A stretch of DNA of 64,000 nt from an uncultured delta proteobacterium (GCA_963848295.1 CAWKDB010000010.1:4830800-4894799), one strand, 5' to 3'; positions 23,132 to 64,000 are shown, counted from the first letter of the stretch. The notes: a model not told the origin generated them from the sequence alone. A program made the numbers and translations.

Positions 23132-23232
23132 GGTGGTCGTACGAACCAGCGGGCCGCGAGGTTACCGCGATTCATCCGCAGCGAGGGCCGCAGCAGCTGT
23201 CGCCGTTGCGGCAACCCATGTACCCGGTCCAA

Positions 23233-23447
23233 CCCGTTGCCGTGACCGTTTGCCGTTTGCCGTCGCCGCTGTTCGCCGTCGCCGTGGCCGTTTGCCGTCG
23301 CCGTGGCCGTGGCCGTTTGCCGTCGCCGTTGCCGGCGCCGTTGCCGTTTGCCGTCGCCGTTGCCGTTTGCCGTTGCCGTTTGCCGTCGCCGTTGCCGTTT
23401 GCCGTGGCCGTGGCCGTTTGCCGTGGCCGCTGTTCGCCGTTTGCCGA
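23233..23447 (+). repeat. Microsatellite array 1: mixed 6/7-mers GCCGTT(T)/GCCGTC/GCCGTG
   Basis: Read directly; GCCGT core with variable unit ends. Confidence 0.95.
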
Positions 23448-23543
23448 CTTTCGGATCGGGAGCAGGAACCGGACCTCGGATTCGGCGCCGAGGCCGTCGC
23501 CGGTTGGCTGCCGGCGTGGCGCCGGCGGCCTCGGCCGAGGTTC

Positions 23544-23867
23544 TTAGTGCGTGAGCCGCCACAGGATGGCGCGCACGTGGTCGAGCGGCTCGTCGACCGC
23601 GGCGAAGTCCTCGGCGGAGATGATGCCGCGCGCCTGTGCGATCAGCAGGGCGGTCGTGAGCTCGCTCGCGCTGCCGGCGGCGCGGCGATAAAAGTCGGGG
23701 CGATCGAGACCGACGCGCATGCGGCCTTCGCTGAGGTTGAGCGCGATGCTCTCGCCGGCGCGGACGATCTCGTCGGCGAGTGACTTGCGCGTGCGGCGGA
23801 CCTTGGCCTCGACAGAAGCGAGCTGCTGCAGGACGGCGAGGGCGAAGTCGAGGGCGTAGAACGACAT
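23544..23867 (-). CDS. Four-helix-bundle protein (23S rRNA IVP / Avd-like), copy A
   Basis: 107 aa; LADEIVRAGESIALNLSEG...AAGSASE matches the family motif L.DQ..RA..SI..NI.EG...A.GS..E; GGAGG RBS. Confidence 0.88.
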   Translation of the reverse strand: MSFYALDFALAVLQQLASVEAKVRRTRKSLADEIVRAGESIALNLSEGRMRVGLDRPDFYRRAAGSASELTTALLIAQARGIISAEDFAAVDEPLDHVRAILWRLTH

Positions 23868-23888
23868 GAAGATCCTCCGAAGTGAGTG

Positions 23889-24085
23889 GCCGATGGGTGG
23901 GAACGTCTCTCTCTCGCCCGTCGCGCCGCAGTCGCGCGGGTCCCGTGACGAGCGCGGGCGCTGACCACCGCACTCGCCGGCCGATCAACTCCGCGGCGAT
24001 CGCTCTCACACGCCGGCGCACTCGGCGCTCGGCGCGGGACAAGCGCGAAGCGGCGCAGGGCGAGAGAGACGTTCCATCCATCGGC
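23889..24085 (-). ncRNA. Putative structured leader / ncRNA (long imperfect hairpin) upstream of four-helix-bundle gene A
   Basis: GCCGATGGGTGGGAACGTCTCTCTCTCGCCC (23889-23919) is complementary to GGGCGAGAGAGACGTTCCATCCATCGGC (24058-24085), with further inner stems; homologous to leader B. Whether it acts as RNA or DNA is not established. Confidence 0.6.
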
Positions 24086-24114
24086 GCGAGCGAAGGAGCG
24101 TCGAGTGTTCCAAG

Positions 24115-24408
24115 GCCGTCGCCGTCGCCGTAGCCGTAGCCGAAGCCGTCGCCGGAGCCGGAGCCGAAGCCGTCGCCGAAGCCGAAGCCGTCGCCGAAGC
24201 CGAAGCCGTCGCCGAAGCCGTCGCCGTCGCCGAAGCCGAAGCCGAAGCCGAAGCCGAAGCCGAAGCCGAAGCCGAAGCCGAAGCCGTAGCCGTAGCCGAA
24301 GCCGTAGCCGGAGCCGAAGCCGAAGCCGAAGCCGAAGCCGAAGCCGAAGCCGTCGCCGTCGCCGAAGCCGAAGCCGAAGCCGAAGCCGAAGCCGTCGCCG
24401 ATGCCGCC
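24115..24408 (+). repeat. Microsatellite array 2: 49 in-phase GCCGNN hexamers (mostly GCCGAA, also GCCGTC/GCCGTA/GCCGGA)
   Basis: 294 nt in perfect 6-nt phase, counted by hand. Confidence 0.97.
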
Positions 24409-24421
24409 ACCTTTCGCACTC

Positions 24422-24622
24422 GCGGCTTCCGATCGCCGTGGCCGTCGCCCTGCGCCGCTTCGCGCCAGCGCCGTGCCGAGCGCCGGGACCACCGACGCGT
24501 GCGAAGGACCGCCGCAGAGTTGGATCGATCGACGCGTGCGGAGATCTGTGCCCGCGCTCGTCACGGCGCCGGCGCGAGTGCGGCGCGACGGGCGAGACGG
24601 CCCCGGCGAATCGGGCGTCCGC
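24422..24622 (+). ncRNA. Putative structured leader / ncRNA (long imperfect hairpin) upstream of four-helix-bundle gene B
   Basis: The 5' arm 24422-24483 pairs with the 3' arm 24554-24622. Core 24445-24597 is ~81% identical (hand count 124/153) to the reverse complement of 23912-24063. Confidence 0.6.
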
Positions 24623-24643
24623 TCATCCACGAAAGGCCACGCC

Positions 24644-24964
24644 ATGCTCGACGTCCTCGCTCAATCGCTCACCGTCCTCGAACAGCTCGCCCCGGTCGAG
24701 CCGAAGCTGCGGGCTCGCCGCAAGTCGCTCGCCGACGAGATCGGCCGCGCCGCCGAGAGCGTCGCGCTCAACATCGCCGAGGCGAGCGCACGCGCCGGCC
24801 TCGACCGCCCCGACATGTTCCGCCGCGCGTTCGGCAGCGCGCGCGAGCTGTCGGCCGCGCTCATGATCGCGAAGGCGCGCGGCTACATCACGCCCGACGA
24901 CTTCGCCGCGATCGATGCGCCGCTCGATCGCGTGCGCGCGATGCTGTTCCGGCTCACACGGTGA
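24644..24964 (+). CDS. Four-helix-bundle protein (23S rRNA IVP / Avd-like), copy B
   Basis: MLDVLAQSL...LADEIGRAAESVALNIAEA...AFGSARE; 106 aa, ~61% identical to copy A by hand alignment; GAAAGG RBS. Confidence 0.88.
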   Translation: MLDVLAQSLTVLEQLAPVEPKLRARRKSLADEIGRAAESVALNIAEASARAGLDRPDMFRRAFGSARELSAALMIAKARGYITPDDFAAIDAPLDRVRAMLFRLTR

Positions 24965-24995
24965 GCGCGCGCCGGGCGCTGATTCCGGCAGCCTT

Positions 24996-25195
24996 GCCGG
25001 AGCCGCAGCCGGTTCCGTACCCGGTTCCGCAGCCGCAGCCGGTTCCGTACCCGGTTCCGCAGCCGCAGCCGTAGCCGGTTCCGCAGCCGTAGCCGCAGCC
25101 GCCGCCGTACCCGGTTCCGCAGCCGCCGCCGCAGCCGGTTCCGCAGCCGCAGCCGTGGCCGTCGCCGATGCCGACAAGCCGCAACCGGTTCCGCT
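24996..25195 (+). repeat. Microsatellite array 3: NCCGNN hexamers (GCCGCA/GCCGGT/TCCGTA/CCCGGT/TCCGCA) with higher-order repeats
   Basis: 30 in-phase units from 24996 to 25175, then 3 more after a 2-nt offset. Confidence 0.95.
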
Positions 25196-25211
25196 GGCGA
25201 GATCCGGACGA

Positions 25212-55965: not shown

Positions 55966-56097
55966 GCCAACTCCTCCGTGCTACTGAACAGTATCATGTT
56001 TTTTGTTTATTGCTTTCATTTTATCAACAAAATATACTAATATCATCCCATTCAACAGGTTGTTGAGTGGTATTTCATAAAACGAAAGGTGAATAAA

Positions 56098-56484
56098 ATG
56101 AAAAAATCGAATAGTATCATGGGTATAACATTTTTAATCGCCGTTGGAATGATTGCGAAAGCGTTTATATTGAATGAAGATGTTAAAGGATTTCTACTAA
56201 TCTTCTTCGCCGTTGGGATGGGTTTAGGATTATTACGATTATTTGTTAATAGCTCCATTAAAAAGATGAGAGGGAAAGGGTGGAAGAGTAAAGTATTGTT
56301 CTTCGGTGTTTTACTCGGCTTAGGATTGCCGTTCCAATCTTGGTTTAGAAATAACGTATTATTAACTATCGATTCAGCCTATTTAATGAGCAGCATGATT
56401 ATAATGGTTGTAGGTGTCTTGTTTATGACAACTTGCTTTAGCTATATTACGAATAAAATAAATATGAAGAGCGTAACAGAATAA
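56098..56484 (+). CDS. Four-TM membrane protein
   Basis: AAAGGTGA RBS; four hydrophobic segments. Confidence 0.8.
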   Translation: MKKSNSIMGITFLIAVGMIAKAFILNEDVKGFLLIFFAVGMGLGLLRLFVNSSIKKMRGKGWKSKVLFFGVLLGLGLPFQSWFRNNVLLTIDSAYLMSSMIIMVVGVLFMTTCFSYITNKINMKSVTE

Positions 56485-56597
56485 AGAAGAAATATTTTGT
56501 ATCATTTCACTGTTTTTCCATTTATCTCCTTTTGCACGAACTAAACGGGACTTTGGGTATAAGGAGTATTATCCTGTTTTTCTTATTTGGCAGTTAA

Positions 56598-56651
56598 TTT
56601 ACCCTTCGTTTACAAAATAAGAGAATCTTCTTTACAAATCTCCAATATAGT
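56598..56651 (+). promoter_or_regulatory. PhoP-box-like repeats and -10 element
   Basis: TTTACC (56598), TTTACA (56609), TTTACA (56631) on an 11-bp register; TATAGT at 56646. Confidence 0.55.
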
Positions 56652-56709
56652 TATTTTTGTCTTATAGAACGACATGTAATGAATTGAGATAAAAAGAGGA
56701 GATTGTACC

Positions 56710-58383
56710 ATGAAGAGTAAACTTAAGTCTTTCATTTGTGGCTCGCTAGCTGTGCTCGCATTATCACAGAGTGTTATGACCGTATCAGCAGCGCCAAATA
56801 AACATAAAGGAGATGATGGCAGATGGATGACTGGAGAGTATCATGTCCATACAGTACAGTCCAATGATGCGTCAGAGTCTTTTATGAAGCTGGAAAATGT
56901 GCTAAATGGAGCCTTCCGCGAAAATCTTAACCAACTGCCACTTGGATCGGCAGCTAGTTTAAACTATGGAGATCCTTTTGATTTTCTTGTCCTAACGGAT
57001 CATTTGCGAAATTCCCCAAGAGATCCAGATGGGATTGACAAGCCAACAGCACGGTGGGAAGCGATTCAAGATCAACAGGCTAAAATTGATGAGCTAAAGG
57101 CATCTGGAAAATATGCTGGGAAGTTGATTTATCCTGGTTTTGAGTGGGACATGATGGGCTTGGACCATGCTTCTGTCGCTATTATGGATTCCAAAAGTAA
57201 TTCTGTCCCAATAGATGCAATCCATGAGTTTGAATGGAAATACAGCTATGATACAAGTGCGGACCGATTTCATGCGAACGAAACCGAATTATGGGGAGCT
57301 AGACCGACAAAGGATGAGTTGAAGCCAAACAAAGAGAAAACCTTTGAAGCGATTCAGTGGCTGAAGGATAACTATCCAGAGAGCTTCGTATTGCCCAATC
57401 ATCCGTCCAGACATAATGGGGGAGATGGAGAAGTGACGATAGAAGATCTCCGTAAAATGAATGACATTGCACCAAACATCGTCTTTGGCATGGAGGGAAT
57501 GCCGGGAAATCAGATGGCAGCCAGTCATAACCGAGCTGAGATGTCTGATGTCTACGGTGGTGTGGATGTGATGGTCGCTCAGGTAGGAGGCGTATGGGAT
57601 GCGTTACTTGGTGAAGGTCGACATTTCTGGAATTTTTCTAACTCAGACTTCCACTTCAAAGTCAGCAGCAACCGTCAATACTCCAGCGGCTACTGGCCAA
57701 GCGAGTACTCTAGAAACTATACATGGGTCGATGGTGATGACTTCAAGGACGTCGTTGAGGGCATGCGTTCAGGTAAATCCTTCTCTGTATATGGGGATCT
57801 TATTAATGCACTGGATTTCACTGTGAAAAGTAAAAATAAAGAAGCTGAGATGGGAGAACAATTACAAGCGGATGAGGGAAAACAAACAACCATTACTATT
57901 CGCTTTAAAAGTCCAGAGTACAACAACTATGCACCGATAAGCGACCACGAAACCTCCGTTACAAACAAGGTTAAGGTCGATCATATTGATTTAATTTCTG
58001 GTGAAGTAACGGGCAAGCTTGATGAAAGCCAATATGCCAGTAATCAGAGTAATGATACGACTAAAGTCGTCAAGCGCTTTACTAAGAAGGACTGGGGAAA
58101 GCCTGATAAAAATGGCTATTATACAATTACTTACAAAGTAAAGGCTGATAAAGACCGATATTATCGTTTGCGCGGTACAAACCTTGGTACGGATGTAGAA
58201 GGCTATACGAGTAACGGTGAGCCGTTGAAGGATCAATCTTTTGATTATGAAGGAACTCAAACACCAGAGCAGCATGAAGAACGCTTTAACAATATCAATG
58301 ACCGTAATTATACCAGTATGTGGTTTTATTCAAATCCGATTTTTGTGGATGTAGTCGAGAAAAAGAAAAAGAAAGCTCATTAA
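56710..58383 (+). CDS. Secreted PHP-superfamily metallophosphoesterase
   Basis: Signal peptide; GEYHVHT, LTDH, NHPSR, NSDFH. Confidence 0.8.
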   Translation: MKSKLKSFICGSLAVLALSQSVMTVSAAPNKHKGDDGRWMTGEYHVHTVQSNDASESFMKLENVLNGAFRENLNQLPLGSAASLNYGDPFDFLVLTDHLRNSPRDPDGIDKPTARWEAIQDQQAKIDELKASGKYAGKLIYPGFEWDMMGLDHASVAIMDSKSNSVPIDAIHEFEWKYSYDTSADRFHANETELWGARPTKDELKPNKEKTFEAIQWLKDNYPESFVLPNHPSRHNGGDGEVTIEDLRKMNDIAPNIVFGMEGMPGNQMAASHNRAEMSDVYGGVDVMVAQVGGVWDALLGEGRHFWNFSNSDFHFKVSSNRQYSSGYWPSEYSRNYTWVDGDDFKDVVEGMRSGKSFSVYGDLINALDFTVKSKNKEAEMGEQLQADEGKQTTITIRFKSPEYNNYAPISDHETSVTNKVKVDHIDLISGEVTGKLDESQYASNQSNDTTKVVKRFTKKDWGKPDKNGYYTITYKVKADKDRYYRLRGTNLGTDVEGYTSNGEPLKDQSFDYEGTQTPEQHEERFNNINDRNYTSMWFYSNPIFVDVVEKKKKKAH

Positions 58384-58465
58384 GTCTTCTACGCTTAGAT
58401 ACAGGAAATATGGAATGGTTTGATATTGCTGAACCTAGTTTGGCGAAGTGAAAAACAATCTAAAA

Positions 58466-58647
58466 GGCCCTTTTCTCAAACTTTGTTGCTCTTAGAGGGA
58501 GAAAAACCTAATTGTCATTTTTATTATGTTGAAATAGCTTAATATTTTTGAGGAAAGGGCTGCAAACTCAATATGAATGCGCAAAATAGCTATTACTACG
58601 TTAAAATCGGCTTTTAGATTTTAACAACAAACTTTACGAAAACAGCC
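58466..58647. mobile_element. MITE-like element with 25-bp imperfect TIRs and an 8-bp target duplication
   Basis: TIRs match at 19/25; ATCTAAAA lies immediately on both sides (58458-58465 and 58648-58655). Confidence 0.7.
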
Positions 58648-58708
58648 ATCTAAAAAAAGAACCCTGGATTTGGTAGAGAGCAGGGGAGAGGGAGCAGCAG
58701 CGAACTCG

Positions 58709-58750
58709 AAAAAAGGATGTCTCAAAACTTTCATTTGGGACATCCTTTTT
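58709..58750. terminator. Bidirectional intrinsic terminator-like hairpin
   Basis: AAAAAAGGATGTCTCAAA ... TTTGGGACATCCTTTTT. Confidence 0.7.
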
Positions 58751-59038
58751 CTACTGTAGAGAAATAGGAAATTATGTAAATATTAAGTCACAACTTGTAT
58801 ATGGATGTTTAACAACATCTATGATAACCTCCCCACTTTTTTGTACAAAAAGGACATAATATTGCTGAAAAATATAAATTGACTGATACACTATTAATGA
58901 TAAAGTGATAGTAATGTAAGTTGGTGTAAGGCTATTCTTTGAAAGAAATGGTAAATAGTAAGGGGGAATCAGTTCTATTTTTTTGAGTTAATAACAGCAA
59001 TTTTATACTGATAATATCAATTGGGGTGAAATAAGAAA

Positions 59039-59320
59039 ATGGATAAGCAAATTCTTGAGCTACTCACAGAAATGAATCAAGAATTAAAGAACTTGAAATT
59101 AGATATGAATAAAGAATTAAAGAGCGTAAAATCAGAAATGAATGAGTTCAAATCAGAAATGCATAATCGTTTTGATAAAGTGGAAGTAAAACTTGAAGGA
59201 ATTGGTGGTCAAATTGAACTGACAAACGAATCAAGAATGGATGATTTTGATTTTATCGCTGATAAAGTAAATAAATTAGAGAAAGAAATATATATTCTAA
59301 AAAGCAAGAATCACAACTAG
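59039..59320 (+). CDS. Coiled-coil hypothetical protein
   Basis: GGGGTG RBS; heptad pattern. Confidence 0.75.
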   Translation: MDKQILELLTEMNQELKNLKLDMNKELKSVKSEMNEFKSEMHNRFDKVEVKLEGIGGQIELTNESRMDDFDFIADKVNKLEKEIYILKSKNHN

Positions 59321-59712
59321 ATATGATCCAATTTTGTACCAGTACAAATTATTTTGATATAACAAGAATGTCGTATTTTAATAAATTTTTCTTTTTCTAT
59401 CATTATCATGGTTCATATGTCAAAGTGTTCTCCTAACAGCTTTCCACATGTCCTCCTTTATACACCCTGTTTCCAAAAGCGATTTTCCTCTTCTTAGTTA
59501 AAGGTGTTGTAGGCTTTCATCAAGTTTCTATGCCTGATATCAACCTATATCTCTAACAATACTCAAAGGCTTTATAAAAATTGTATTTTTCATTTAGCGA
59601 ATAGTCCCTGTGAATGTTTGCTAGCTTTTTTCAGCGGTATGGGACATGGACTAGCCTTCTGTCTCGTGAGAATCGCAATAAACTAGTTAAACAAAATAAT
59701 TAAAGGAGGAAA

Positions 59713-60005
59713 ATGAGGTGTTAAAAAAATTAGGATTAGCAATCATGGTGTTGTTTTTGCGTTCATATCTTTACAATCTACTTCTTATGCAGAAGAGGGT
59801 AAGGATGGGAAATCTGTAAACCTTCGTGTCATGAGCTAGAATATCCATTACGAGCATAATATGAACAATCAATATGACTTAGAATCCGTAGCTACTGTTA
59901 TTCGTGATTCGAAGACAGATATTATTGGTTTGCAAGAAGTCGATGTGCATTGGGGAACTCGAAGTAATTTTAAGAACAAAATCAAAATACTAGCCCTAAA
60001 ATAAT
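59713..60005 (+). pseudogene. Endonuclease/exonuclease/phosphatase (EEP) family remnant
   Basis: AAAGGAGG RBS, signal peptide, then LRVMS*NIH...DIIGLQEVDVHWGTRS with an in-frame TAG and truncation. Confidence 0.7.
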
Positions 60006-60056
60006 AAAAACTCCAATAAAAAGAATGATACGCATTTATGAAAGACTCATAAAAAA

Positions 60057-60086
60057 GCATGGCAATTTCTAAAAGAATTGCCATGC
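60057..60086. terminator. Hairpin / terminator
   Basis: GCATGGCAATT...AATTGCCATGC preceded by an A-run. Confidence 0.6.
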
Positions 60087-60124
60087 AAATTTGTTTGATA
60101 ATAATGGGTATTTTTAGTAATGAC

Positions 60125-60166
60125 CAAAAGGGGAGGTACTTACGTTTGGTACCGTCCCCTTTTTTG
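60125..60166. terminator. Intrinsic terminator of the choice-of-anchor I gene
   Basis: AAAAGGGGAGGTAC...GTACCGTCCCCTTTTTT next to the stop codon. Confidence 0.65.
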
Positions 60167-60167
60167 A

Positions 60168-62440
60168 TTAACGAATTTCAAAGATATTTACATTTCCTGA
60201 TACTTCATTTGCAACAATCAGAAGTGGCTGTCTAGTAGGGCTGTCTTTAGCCTCAACGACATTCAGACCTTCTGGTGCAAGGGAACCGCTTGTTGACACG
60301 CTCTTCCCAGTGAAATCTCGTAAATTAATATAATCGTAGAATGTTACATTCTCTACATCTGTCACATCATACATCATGATGCCACCGATTCTTTCAAGTC
60401 CTATGAAAGCATAAGTTTTTCCTTTTATTTTCATGACTTTAATATCTTCTGGTTCTGGCCCTTTTTTGCCACTTCTCGAATCTAGTTCAGATTTATTATT
60501 AGAAGAGTTAAATACGGTCGGATAAAGTTCGGCAGTTAATTTTTCAAAATCACTTCCACTGTCATATACCTGATTCATTGTATCTGCATCCCAGATGGAA
60601 AAAGAACGGCCTCCATAAATATAGGTTTTATCTGTTTGAAGACCTTCTCTCTCAGCATTTAAGAGGGTATCGATTTTATACTTAGTTCCAGGAAATGTAT
60701 AGGAACCTGTATCTTCATATTTATAAGGCTTGGATCCCCATTCCCTAGCATCGCCTTCATTGGCAGTAAAAATATATTGCTTACCTTTTAGTTTTATTGT
60801 GGCAATCCCATCCGGCATATAAATGCCATAAAGATTCTGCGGTGTCATTTCAATTTGGCTGTCTTTTAATGCATCCAAAGCATTTTCAGAAAGATTATGA
60901 TCTTTAAAACCGAGTCCCTTAACACTTACAAAGGTTTTTGTTTTCAAATCAAGAGTCGCTATTGCATTTGCTTCTTGCAGTGAAACATACGCATACTTAC
61001 TGTTGTCTGATACTGTAATATATTCTGGTTCCAAATCTACAGATGGTGCAGTATTTGGTTTTAATAATACCTTCCCCGCAACAAGTGCTGTTCTTGCTTT
61101 TTCATCATCAAACTTAGTAAATCCAATGGTATCAACTGCTGCTCGATTCACACCCTTTTGTAAATCAACGATCGTTACAGTACCTTTTGGGTCAATGGCT
61201 CCAGGTGCTGTATAGCCTTCACGTGGTTCACCTTCATTTGCTGACAGAATATATTTAAAGTCAGGTGTAAAAGTAACCATATCTGGCTGATTGCCTGCTT
61301 CAAAATGCTTCATGTAGTTCCCAGCATAATCAAGAATGACGATATAGCCGTTATCTTTATAAGTAGCACCTTGTACAGCGATCGCAATGATATTATCCTT
61401 TGGATTTACATCAACACTTGTAATATCACCACTGAAAAACCCGTTAGCAGCTGCCATTGCAGAAATATCAATGCGCTTTTCAATCAAAAGGTCTGTTTTA
61501 TCTGTTGAAACCATCTTTGAGATATCAACAATATCGACTGATTGTGCTGCACCATTTACGATATACATTTTTTTATTATCTTTATTGTATTTAACAATTT
61601 CGGCAATCCCGCCATCGCTGTCACTCATGCCAGTACGATAGTTTGCAATGTAATGTAATTTCCCATTCATGCTATTTTCATTTAACGCTGGAAACGTGGG
61701 AGTAGTTGGAGGTGTTACATTTACATCTCCATCATCCGTGCTTGTCCATTCACCATCTGCCAAAGATCGTGGATAATAAGCTTTAATAAATGCTTCATTT
61801 ACTATAGGATCATTCCAAGTTAAAAGAGAGAAATCAGCCAAATTGTTATTTGTATCAACAAAATTTACTCTTCTGAGCGATTTTTGTTTAGAGATTCCAG
61901 TTGCTGGTGAATCCCTTCACTGATGTTGGTAAAATTTGTTACTCTGTTTGATATTGCGTCAACTTGCTTTCCTTCTTTGTTAAAAAGCTTTAATTCGATC
62001 GTCTTATCATTGTCAATCGTTCTAGTTGACCAATCAAGGTCACTTTTTACGAGCGAATATTTAATATAGGCCGCAGATGTTGTTTCTGAAGCCGCTCTAA
62101 TTAAAAATGAATGTTTTGCGGGTATGGAGCCTGTAAGATTCAAGGTATCTACTTGAAGATTTCCAGATACGTCGATTGTAGATCCGAGGTGCTTGTTTTC
62201 TCTGTTGGAAGAGTAGGAAAGTGTGTAACCAGTTAGATCAATCGTGCTGTCTGTTGGGTTATAAAGCTCAATGAAGCTGTGTGTAAACGGCGTATCACTT
62301 TTTCCGCCACCGCCATAGATTTGGTTGATGATTAAGTGATTTCCTGACTGCGTCTCTGCCATAACACTTAATGGAAGAGTAGCCAATAATAAAGAAGCTG
62401 TAATAATCAGGTTGAGGATTAACCGTGATTTTGACATCAT
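60168..62440 (-). CDS. Lamin-tail domain + choice-of-anchor I (alkaline phosphatase-like beta-propeller) protein, one frameshift near 61900
   Basis: Signal peptide, IINQIYGGGG...FIELYNP; ANEGEP, TANEGD, GGRSFSIW, DSRSGKKGPEPE, ANEVSG. Confidence 0.82.
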
Positions 62441-62856
62441 ATTTCCTCCTACATAAATTAGTTATTCTAAATGTTTTTTATTCAGAATTTATTAATTATG
62501 ACATAAAAATATTAGGTGAAATATAAGGAATTGTAAAAATTTAGCTACTTTTTTGTAAAAGGAAAGGGACAAATCGCGTTTCAAAATTTTCTTTTGAAAC
62601 ATGAGTATAGCCTCCATGTTTCAAGATATAATTCGACAATGGCTCGTTCGCAAAAACCTGTCGTTAGCAGATGCTTTTTCGTCATTTAATGGTGCCTAGA
62701 CCGTGCAGAAACTCCGTTTAAGATACAGTTTTTATCTTTTTTTGGGGGATGGGGGACAGGCACCTCGTTCCAGTTAATAACTTATGAGAAGAATTGTTGA
62801 CGAAAATTATATTGATAGTTATAAAATAATACTCGAACTTTTGAAGTCCGATTTTA

Positions 62857-63260
62857 ATGATTATAGAAAGAGCCGCGGTGCTGACCCATGTCCCAAACAG
62901 TCAAAAAATCCAAGAGGTACCTGAAAATTCAAGTATTCTTAGAATGTCACTTCGTTATGATGGAAAACTGCCAAATCGATGTGGCGCGGGTACTTGCGGC
63001 AATTGTGTATTTAAGCTAGAAGAGGGTGCGGAATTCATAGATAATGTAAAACCACAAGAAAAAAGAAATTAGGTGCAGAGTTACTTAAAAAAGGTTATCG
63101 ATTAGGCTGCCAAACTTTTGTAACAGATGGTGATATCAAAATTTCCTGGGATGAAGAAATTAGGAAACAGGTTGTTAAAAGAAAACTAGATAAATCCCAA
63201 AAAAGAAGTTACTTCAGCAAGATAACAAAATTAGTAGTGGCTAAGTTTAAAAGATTTTAA
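62857..63260 (+). CDS. 2Fe-2S ferredoxin, frameshifted near 63065
   Basis: CGAGTCGNC, then RLGCQ in the shifted frame. Confidence 0.75.
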
Positions 63261-63330
63261 TTTAGTAAATAGAAGGAAACTTTAAGGTTTAATTGGTTTA
63301 AAATTTATCTAATAAATAGGGGATAAGATC

Positions 63331-63489
63331 ATGTGGGTAATCACTGTCTATTCAAAAGACAATAGGACAATGTTTGAATTTGATATTGAAAAAGAGGCAA
63401 GAGAAGCTTTTGAGAATATTCCTGACTACAAAATTTTAACTGAGATTATTTATCTCCATAAAGTGGTTCATGAAACTGTAACGTCTTGA
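63331..63489 (+). CDS. Small hypothetical protein (52 aa)
   Basis: AGGGG RBS; MWVITVYSKDNRTMFEFDIEKEAREAFENI... Confidence 0.65.
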   Translation: MWVITVYSKDNRTMFEFDIEKEAREAFENIPDYKILTEIIYLHKVVHETVTS

Positions 63490-63582
63490 AATCATTTTAA
63501 AAACTAGGCTCTGTTAAAATTAAATGTTGATAATTAGGCAGACTTAAAGGAAACCCTATTTTTATGGGATTTCCCCATTATC

Positions 63583-64000
63583 TCAATTAGTTAGCCTTTG
63601 ATAGTGAAGATTTAGATCTTGTAGTGCAATACTTAAATCAACAGAGGCATCAATGGCAATATATAATGCAATAATACTTGCTAAAACAATTACAATTGCA
63701 CCATCTTTAAGTGTTTTTCTGTTCTTCTTATAAAGGAGGAACGAGAATGACTGCAACAATTAAAAAGTATGATAACGATATGATTAGTTTTGAAAGTATT
63801 AATTGACTATCGTTTACAGCCATCATAAAATTTTGTAATTCATCTTTATTGTCGATACTTTCTTCGATAGTAGTTATATCTCCTTTGTAACTAACCTTCC
63901 AAGAGAATGAAATTTTCGTCTTTAGTTACGGTGTACTCATAGTCCATAGCTTTACCATCACCAATAATTTCTGAATATTCTTGTGTATCCTCTTCGCTTT
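63583..64000 (-). CDS. Membrane protein, C-terminal part (frameshifted)
   Basis: ...FSWKVSYKG...LIISLSYFLIVAVIL.../...IVIVLASIIALYIAID...RLTN*. Confidence 0.55.

Follow-up and report, generated by a model that had tools for sequence, protein, structure and literature searches.

A multicopy and very probably mobile cassette of paired four-helix-bundle genes, hairpin leaders and hexamer arrays in an uncultured delta proteobacterium

A 64,000-nucleotide stretch of DNA from an uncultured delta proteobacterium (the window) contains a cassette of two genes, their leaders and hexamer arrays, which is very probably mobile, because relatives have empty sites, the cassette is multicopy and its distribution is patchy. 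The unit that has multiplied in this genome is the whole pair, comprising gene A, a middle array and gene B. Searches with tblastn and blastn recovered ten copies of A and ten of B (one truncated), always back to back, at ten loci with unique flanks, and the A-array-B copies share 90-99% nucleotide identity. A spacer of 586-883 nt separates the two start codons, and in total the insert is 1.6-2.4 kb long. Beyond these loci, the genome holds a more distant pair, a solo gene and the remnant of a deleted copy. Directly past the array of the solo copy lie ~3.5 tandem copies of a ~154-nt palindrome-rich repeat (G000 C10:1108954-1109510).

Architecture of the cassette in the window

The initial annotation described the order array 1, gene A, hairpin A, array 2, hairpin B, gene B and array 3, between two ordinary co-directional genes, and this layout stands with its coordinates unchanged; the flanking genes, DUF1223 and class II aldolase, are both on the minus strand. 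Array 1 (23234-23447, plus strand), the left outer tract, is non-coding and consists of (CCG-NN-G)n in mixed 6/7-mers. It is followed on the minus strand by the 3' trailer of gene A (23448-23543), which contains a hairpin (z -3.1 as DNA), by gene A itself (23544-23867, 107 amino acids) and by leader A (23868-24101), a rod hairpin of ~235 nt with a basal helix predicted to pair with the ribosome-binding site. Array 2 (24116-24409, plus strand) fills the space between the two leaders, and all 49 of its units are in-phase CCG. The remaining features are on the plus strand: leader B (24406-24643), a rod hairpin homologous to leader A with its own anti-RBS basal helix, gene B (24644-24964, 106 amino acids), the conserved 3' trailer of gene B (24965-24995), with a short stem-loop that alone is not significant (z -1.0), and the right outer tract, array 3 (24996-25193), which ends 18 nt from the aldolase stop codon. 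The longer trailers of other A copies have a motif in common with the B trailer. As had been noted, CCG-NN reads on the plus strand in all three arrays.

A sigma-70 promoter scan of the cassette found 0 sites, a terminator scan found one terminator-like site, outside the cassette and at chance level, and an Rfam scan returned nothing below E 2. None of the genome's profile matches to RVT_1 or Y1_Tnp falls inside the window; the RVT_1 matches all lie outside it, in line with the earlier statement that the window carries no reverse transcriptase (RT) gene. Upstream of DUF1223, at 23140-23165 on the minus strand, a GTAACC-N17-CGTA-like motif is conserved in relatives (by eye) and is probably an ECF-type promoter; the cassette inserted just upstream of this motif and left it intact. 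At the contig end of the window (56000-64000) the GC content falls from ~68% to 33-40%. Its genes include those of a lamin-tail protein and a choice-of-anchor I protein, and the stretch may be of foreign origin or the result of a wrong join.

Proteins A and B are PF05635/TIGR02436 four-helix bundles with the S23p/Avd fold. They have 65 of 106 residues in common, matching the ~61% identity originally given, and the proposed family assignment is confirmed by scores above both cut-offs (47.2 bits for A and 50.4 for B against PF05635, cut-off 33.8; 48.5 and 47.5 bits against TIGR02436, cut-off 24). The AlphaFold (AF2) model of A has four helices and a pLDDT of 95.7, and superimposes on BT_0352 (Z 17.0, rmsd 1.6, 106 residues aligned), Xcc0516 (Z 16.3, rmsd 1.9, 104 aligned) and Avd (Z 14.8 and 14.4, rmsd 1.8-1.9, 102-104 aligned), with the next unrelated bundle at Z 12.7. 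Neither protein is strongly basic (14 K+R and 14 D+E in A, 17 K+R and 14 D+E in B). Both genes are under purifying selection, with a dN/dS of 0.164 over 45 pairs for A, and of 0.125 over 36 pairs for B. Copy A4 (G000 C10:511331) lacks the usual stop codon, and its reading continues into the trailer. Judged from their sequences, A and B are separate lineages, with single copies from elsewhere reaching up to 73% and 78% identity to them, respectively, more than the two share with each other; in the tree, read without the out-of-frame row L260_G095B, the branch dividing A from B is supported at 85/84 only. We know of no function for the widespread TIGR02436/PF05635 proteins outside DGRs.

The leaders of A and B are 81% identical over 153 nt, so that the claim of homologous leaders holds, and both fold as long rods (z -4.96 and -6.32, with 0/200 shuffles as stable). 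An alignment of 32 leaders, nine from this genome and 23 from relatives, yields a 50-pair rod with 87% of cells paired, compared with 31-51% in slid controls, over which the structure is favoured by having been derived from the same 32 sequences. Twenty-one of the 50 pairs have changed on both sides, a number reached in 0/500 shuffles. The leader forms a long, imperfect palindrome that has an invariant mismatch and in whose core the covariation is almost entirely Watson-Crick. In the basal helix, a C/U-rich segment beside the array is predicted to pair with the ribosome-binding site (80% paired, four of five pairs covarying). Insertion sequences have protection against read-through, which this anti-RBS helix resembles. 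Because the antisense strand folds better in 28 of the 32 copies, a DNA hairpin or an antisense RNA fits as well as an mRNA leader. In this genome, the leader profile matches below E 1e-15 at the 24 family loci and nowhere else, and the search found no significant free-standing leader there. In other genomes, a covariance model, as had been proposed, places the leader before distant partner genes as well. At L125:2170-3092 an A-like gene without a leader is flanked by inverted hexamer arrays able to pair around the gene, an IVS-like layout.

Empty sites and hexamer arrays

The initial annotation suggested looking for the aldolase next to DUF1223 in relatives, and this arrangement is frequent. 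Among the best 29 of 74 relatives with a DUF1223 match, 21 have the aldolase end at most 200 nt from the DUF1223 start (20 by tblastn, one by eye), with neither gene nor array between; two have other DNA between the genes and six have other neighbours. A PF05635-like four-helix match was found at this site in 0/29 of them. The closest relative, G112, has 7 nt and no array in place of the whole inserted segment of ~2.05 kb (23166-25211; L037). At a second site, two convergent stop codons abut directly in G112, compared with 2.4 kb of insert here. Two more sites of G112 retain decayed fragments of B with array stubs (79-91% identical); G080 is cleanly empty at one of these two sites, which gives a third empty site. 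Relatives were compared at six of the ten sites, at two of which the G112 flanks lie on separate contigs.

The absence of arrays from the empty sites shows that the cassette brings its arrays along, contrary to the earlier idea of insertion into a pre-existing microsatellite. The decayed B fragments in G112 indicate that some insertions predate the split from G112, and that the similarity among the copies here is partly due to homogenisation or replacement rather than to new jumps. No target-site duplication was found at the junctions of nine loci, none was visible against the empty sites, and junction direct and inverted repeats were not above the cross-locus background (12.0 vs 12.9 and 12.6 vs 13.8; nine loci). 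The left neighbour faces the cassette at 9/10 loci and the right neighbour at 6/9 (by codon score, some scores being weak), and at 0 loci does the cassette lie between two gene starts by the same score. Distances for the A ORF, A leader, B leader and B ORF are incongruent (Mantel r <= 0.27, p > 0.16), which indicates that modules were exchanged between loci, unless assembly mixed them; part of the mosaicism could stem from errors of assembly or polishing at repeats. Variants closely similar to both genes and both leaders are also present in short contigs of four public DNA runs from two studies, which yielded no informative joint; no RNA run was among those listed as carrying the sequence.

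An order-5 Markov control of 1.5 Mb, run as a test of chance, contained 0 such arrays, compared with 19 in a real contig of equal size. The genome has 70 CCG-hexamer arrays. For 33 of them the nearest four-helix gene is no more than 1 kb away, and a crude codon model classes 28 of these 33 as non-coding; by the same model, 30 of the 37 arrays far from the family look like in-frame coding linkers. The middle and left arrays are present at all ten loci and the right array at all nine loci with intact B. The outer arrays (1 and 3) are different at every locus. The ten middle arrays, with 405 units in total, are almost indel-free: positions 1, 2, 3 and 6 are 98-100% fixed, and positions 4-5 show 48 extra NN types, compared with six variants at the other four positions, a difference that the nominal p overstates because the units are related by descent. 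Selection on the motif or targeted mutation is needed to account for this pattern of fixed and free positions. On the reverse strand the units of this genome read GGC-NN-C, with C the rarest base at both free positions (2% and 9%). The spacers of G095 are G-rich, with 44% G at position 5, and G-poor spacers are not a general trait.

Relatives carry arrays as well, as was seen in a proposed check of flanking sequences. A period-6/7 array precedes the leader in 35 of the 59 relatives with enough sequence and follows downstream in 12/79 (controls, 6/250 and 21/2997), in a census set (L119-L209) that includes some near-duplicate loci. In 19 of 21 close relatives the upstream array is CCG on the gene strand. 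Array 2 is thus canonical for B, with A as its inverted partner, which explains the puzzle raised earlier that all arrays read on the same strand. The proposal of a modular mobile unit of leader and ORF tied to hexamer arrays is supported by the multiple copies, the empty sites and the relatives with leader and upstream array. The initial annotation had also held that a family without leader, arrays and empty sites would point to a one-off inverted duplication; relatives do carry leader and array, and empty sites exist. Its suggestion that two units inserted separately at this site was not supported, because the same A-array-B pair occupies all ten sites and A and B are separate lineages.

Expansions in other genomes

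In the genus, the family is matched in 57 of 91 genomes, and the copies per genome range from 0 to 22 (E <= 1e-25), in a tally that includes many fragmented assemblies and two unpublished genomes that enter no other claim; the copy number is patchy. All ten loci retrieved from G095 are divergent pairs of a B-like gene and a distant partner (35% identical to A), with a middle array shared by descent. Young copies in G095 have only 61-77 nt past gene B in common, after which the outer array differs, even between copies that are 99.7% identical. G108 contains five convergent pairs of two further gene types (49% identical), one of which has CGG hexamers upstream in 5/5 cases and the other in 0/5, with 7-mers in 3/5. 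In G108 the array type thus tracks the protein type within one cassette, which linkage alone could explain. G095 and G108 amplified their pairs independently and with different partner genes, and single unpaired genes are multicopy in other genomes, for example G087, so that pairing is not required. No relatives of the family were found in annotated phages, nor in viral contigs in a weak search with one short pattern.

Two repeat features were observed in these genomes. In G095, a ~20-nt motif ending in ATCGATAG directly precedes CCG arrays (L261, L265 and L266). One cassette has this motif in direct orientation at either side. The motif belongs to a different small repeated element and is a candidate for a seed or for a site of recombination. 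In G108, ~35-nt repeats built on GGTCCCGCGGAACC fill the space between convergent pairs (L289:1680-2000 and L291:1695-1860).

Possible mode of spread, alternatives and known systems

We tentatively favour the view that this is an enzyme-less selfish cassette, in which the protein is predicted to bind its own arrays and leader, and which may be spread by host recombination or repair from the arrays. This combination of binding and host recombination is inferred, with rather less than even confidence. The cassette would probably be expressed by read-through from host genes whose 3' ends adjoin it, and the inverted pair would offer one sense gene whichever side the read-through comes from. The homologues of the protein suggest that it would assemble into an Avd-like pentamer, which may bind its own single-stranded array through the fixed CCG motif with free spacer, as TRAP does, and may also bind the leader, with self-repression through the anti-RBS helix; a putative RNA-protein complex of leader and protein is plausible. 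The unstable arrays would then provide the ends from which strands invade, or templates are switched, at short GC-rich microhomologies, and surviving insertions would be those beside stop codons. Strand invasion from array ends would explain the missing target duplication, the variable outer arrays and the swapping of modules between loci. The TRAP ring has (G/U)AG repeat targets, which in the available part of the report lie in tandem in a leader, with a fixed motif and spacers that are not conserved (PMC1474065). TRAP is a works-like analogy only, of an oligomeric ring with fixed motifs and free spacers; binding by the cassette protein is a prediction, the protein folds are unrelated and TRAP is a fixed metabolic regulator.

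Supply of an enzyme in trans, as the initial annotation envisaged, found no support: there is no recurrent partner in cis, no shared RT class and no link to Y1 genes. No enzyme recurs among 88 neighbouring ORFs (crude codon filter), which include three AAA_21 ATPases, one Uma2, one Y1 and two DDE-type matches. It is unlikely that the cassette is a non-autonomous transposon moved by an HUH (Y1/RAYT-like) or DDE transposase, with the leader as a single-stranded DNA hairpin and the arrays as by-products. Such a transposon would fit the long imperfect palindrome of the leader, with its covariation and invariant mismatch, the strand asymmetry of its folding, and the abundance of Y1_Tnp matches (88/91 genus genomes, nine matches in this genome); at L226, one Y1 gene even lies between CCG arrays and adjoins a cassette. 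However, the hairpins are internal rather than terminal in the divergent pairs, the junction repeats do not exceed background, and 0/30 Y1 loci have the leader or a four-helix gene nearby, while arrays are near 2/30 of them compared with 4/29 control loci. Moreover, at least six of the nine Y1 genes here have a different, conserved palindromic element of ~170 nt upstream, unrelated to the leader studied (in G000, for example, at C2:1374309, C10:1439500, C10:3445968 and C10:3040575). By its ends the cassette would not class with MITEs and insertion sequences, as neither terminal inverted repeats nor target duplication rose above background (nine loci, empty sites), nor would it class with REP/RAYT elements, as the leader is at 0/30 Y1 loci and none is free-standing in this genome.

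An RNA-mediated element, in which leader and Avd-like protein recruit an RT in trans that would both copy the unit and write or mutate its arrays, by adenine mutagenesis of the DGR kind on a GGC-AA-C template, is improbable. The Avd-like fold would suit it, as would the scarcity of C at both free positions on the reverse strand, which has the same rank order as DGR mutagenesis (22.2, 17.8 and 11.6% in the available part of 10.1101/2020.04.29.068544). Against it, no DGR-type RT was found in this genome, which is only 85% complete, so that an RT could have been missed; its three RTs over cut-off are all of group II intron type. The RTs of G017 and G087 are also of group II type, those of G095 and G108 are only of retron type, and G011 has the retron type as well, so that the proposed check for RT co-occurrence gave no RT class common to genomes with expansions. 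In 41 arrays of relatives, A and T occur about equally often in constant columns (13 vs 12), and of the 81 variable columns 13 contain no bases other than C and G. Adenine-restricted variation of the DGR type thus fits the arrays of this genome, and was rejected because it fails over the 41 arrays of relatives and in G095 with its G-rich spacers.

Retention rather than movement is the premise of an addiction module or a host-useful regulator, in which array RNA neutralises the protein and the copies are kept by selection and duplicated passively. Type III toxin-antitoxin systems, in which long pseudoknot repeats neutralise a toxic RNase, have this architecture of array, hairpin and ORF, and the order of the cassette, the predicted RBS sequestration by the leader and the purifying selection on every copy agree with it. 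Yet type III antitoxin repeats are far longer than 6 nt, copy number in the genus is patchy, copies have decayed in G112, and PADLOC gave no match; retention also leaves the arrival at new, non-homologous sites unexplained, and we regard this reading as quite unlikely. The idea that a single inverted duplication took place next to ordinary microsatellites, or that assembly created the arrangement, would gain from the frequency of CCG hexamer tracts in coding linkers here (30/37 distant arrays in frame). It is scarcely credible given the ten loci with unique flanks, the non-coding nature of the arrays near the family (28/33), the closer relatives that A and B have in other genomes, and the gene and leader variants in public runs from two studies, and we ruled it out on the ten copies, the empty sites and the pair expansion in G095.

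Among known systems, the intervening sequences (IVSs) of 23S rRNA, whose ORF sits within a stem that RNase III excises, resemble the cassette in their PF05635 family protein, long stem-loop and selfish behaviour. The S23p IVS of Coxiella burnetii is described, in the available part of the report, as an ORF-bearing intervening sequence of 23S rRNA (PMC4990558). A read-through transcript of the A-B pair is predicted to fold into a giant hairpin of 331 pairs spanning > 600 nt. By this comparison the cassette may work like an IVS freed from rRNA, yet it would not class as one: it lies outside rRNA between protein-coding flanks, with no Rfam match below E 2, and occupies many unrelated intergenic sites with hexamer arrays; its leader hairpin precedes the ORF and does not surround it, and purifying selection acts on its ORFs. 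Avd and its spacer RNA offer the same fold next to a structured nucleic acid (PMC6182149; 10.1101/2023.10.23.563531, both as far as available), and in the accessible part of the latter report Avd engages an RNA stem-loop through each of its five protomers. In contrast to Avd and DGRs, the cassette has no RT, template repeat or variable repeat, sequence identity is 9%, and A and B are near neutral whereas Avd is positively charged. REP/RAYT and MITE-like elements are enzyme-less palindromic DNA, multicopy, and enriched at gene 3' ends or between convergent genes. The cassette shares with them the absence of an enzyme, the palindromes, the multiple copies and the position at gene 3' ends, but carries conserved protein genes and microsatellite ends, and lacks terminal inverted repeats, target duplication, a Y1 link and, in this genome, free-standing leaders.

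It is rather doubtful, though worth considering, that the cassette represents a new class of mobile element without a catalytic protein, in which an Avd-fold ring would read its own cognate microsatellite and the protein-repeat pair would drive copying to the 3' ends of genes and build up new repeats wherever a copy lands. We found no description of four-helix-bundle genes with repeat arrays in the literature (main texts, few subscription journals), and the available parts of PMC4679880 and PMC5524665 do not describe the cassette. If such a class exists, the large TIGR02436 family would gain a function, and it would point to an ancestor from which DGRs and rRNA IVSs recruited the protein. It would also explain the origin of many non-coding bacterial repeat tracts of 6-7 bases, which to our knowledge is unexplained. 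If the cassette moves without an enzyme of its own, the definition of a mobile element would widen. The system is directly testable, with ten selected copies, empty alleles in relatives and a covarying leader, and the sharp pattern of fixed and free array positions predicts a binding motif.

A second, unrelated cassette family with four-helix bundles is present in this genome (G000; C2:271083, C2:797188, C10:3467581, C10:4056361, C10:2647165, C2:436753 and C10:3175866). It has 15-bp terminal inverted repeats and, near its ends, short inverted GACCTT-type repeats and CTAG, and looks MITE-like. An 11-bp direct repeat surrounds one copy, and group II intron sequence lies within or directly beside several copies.
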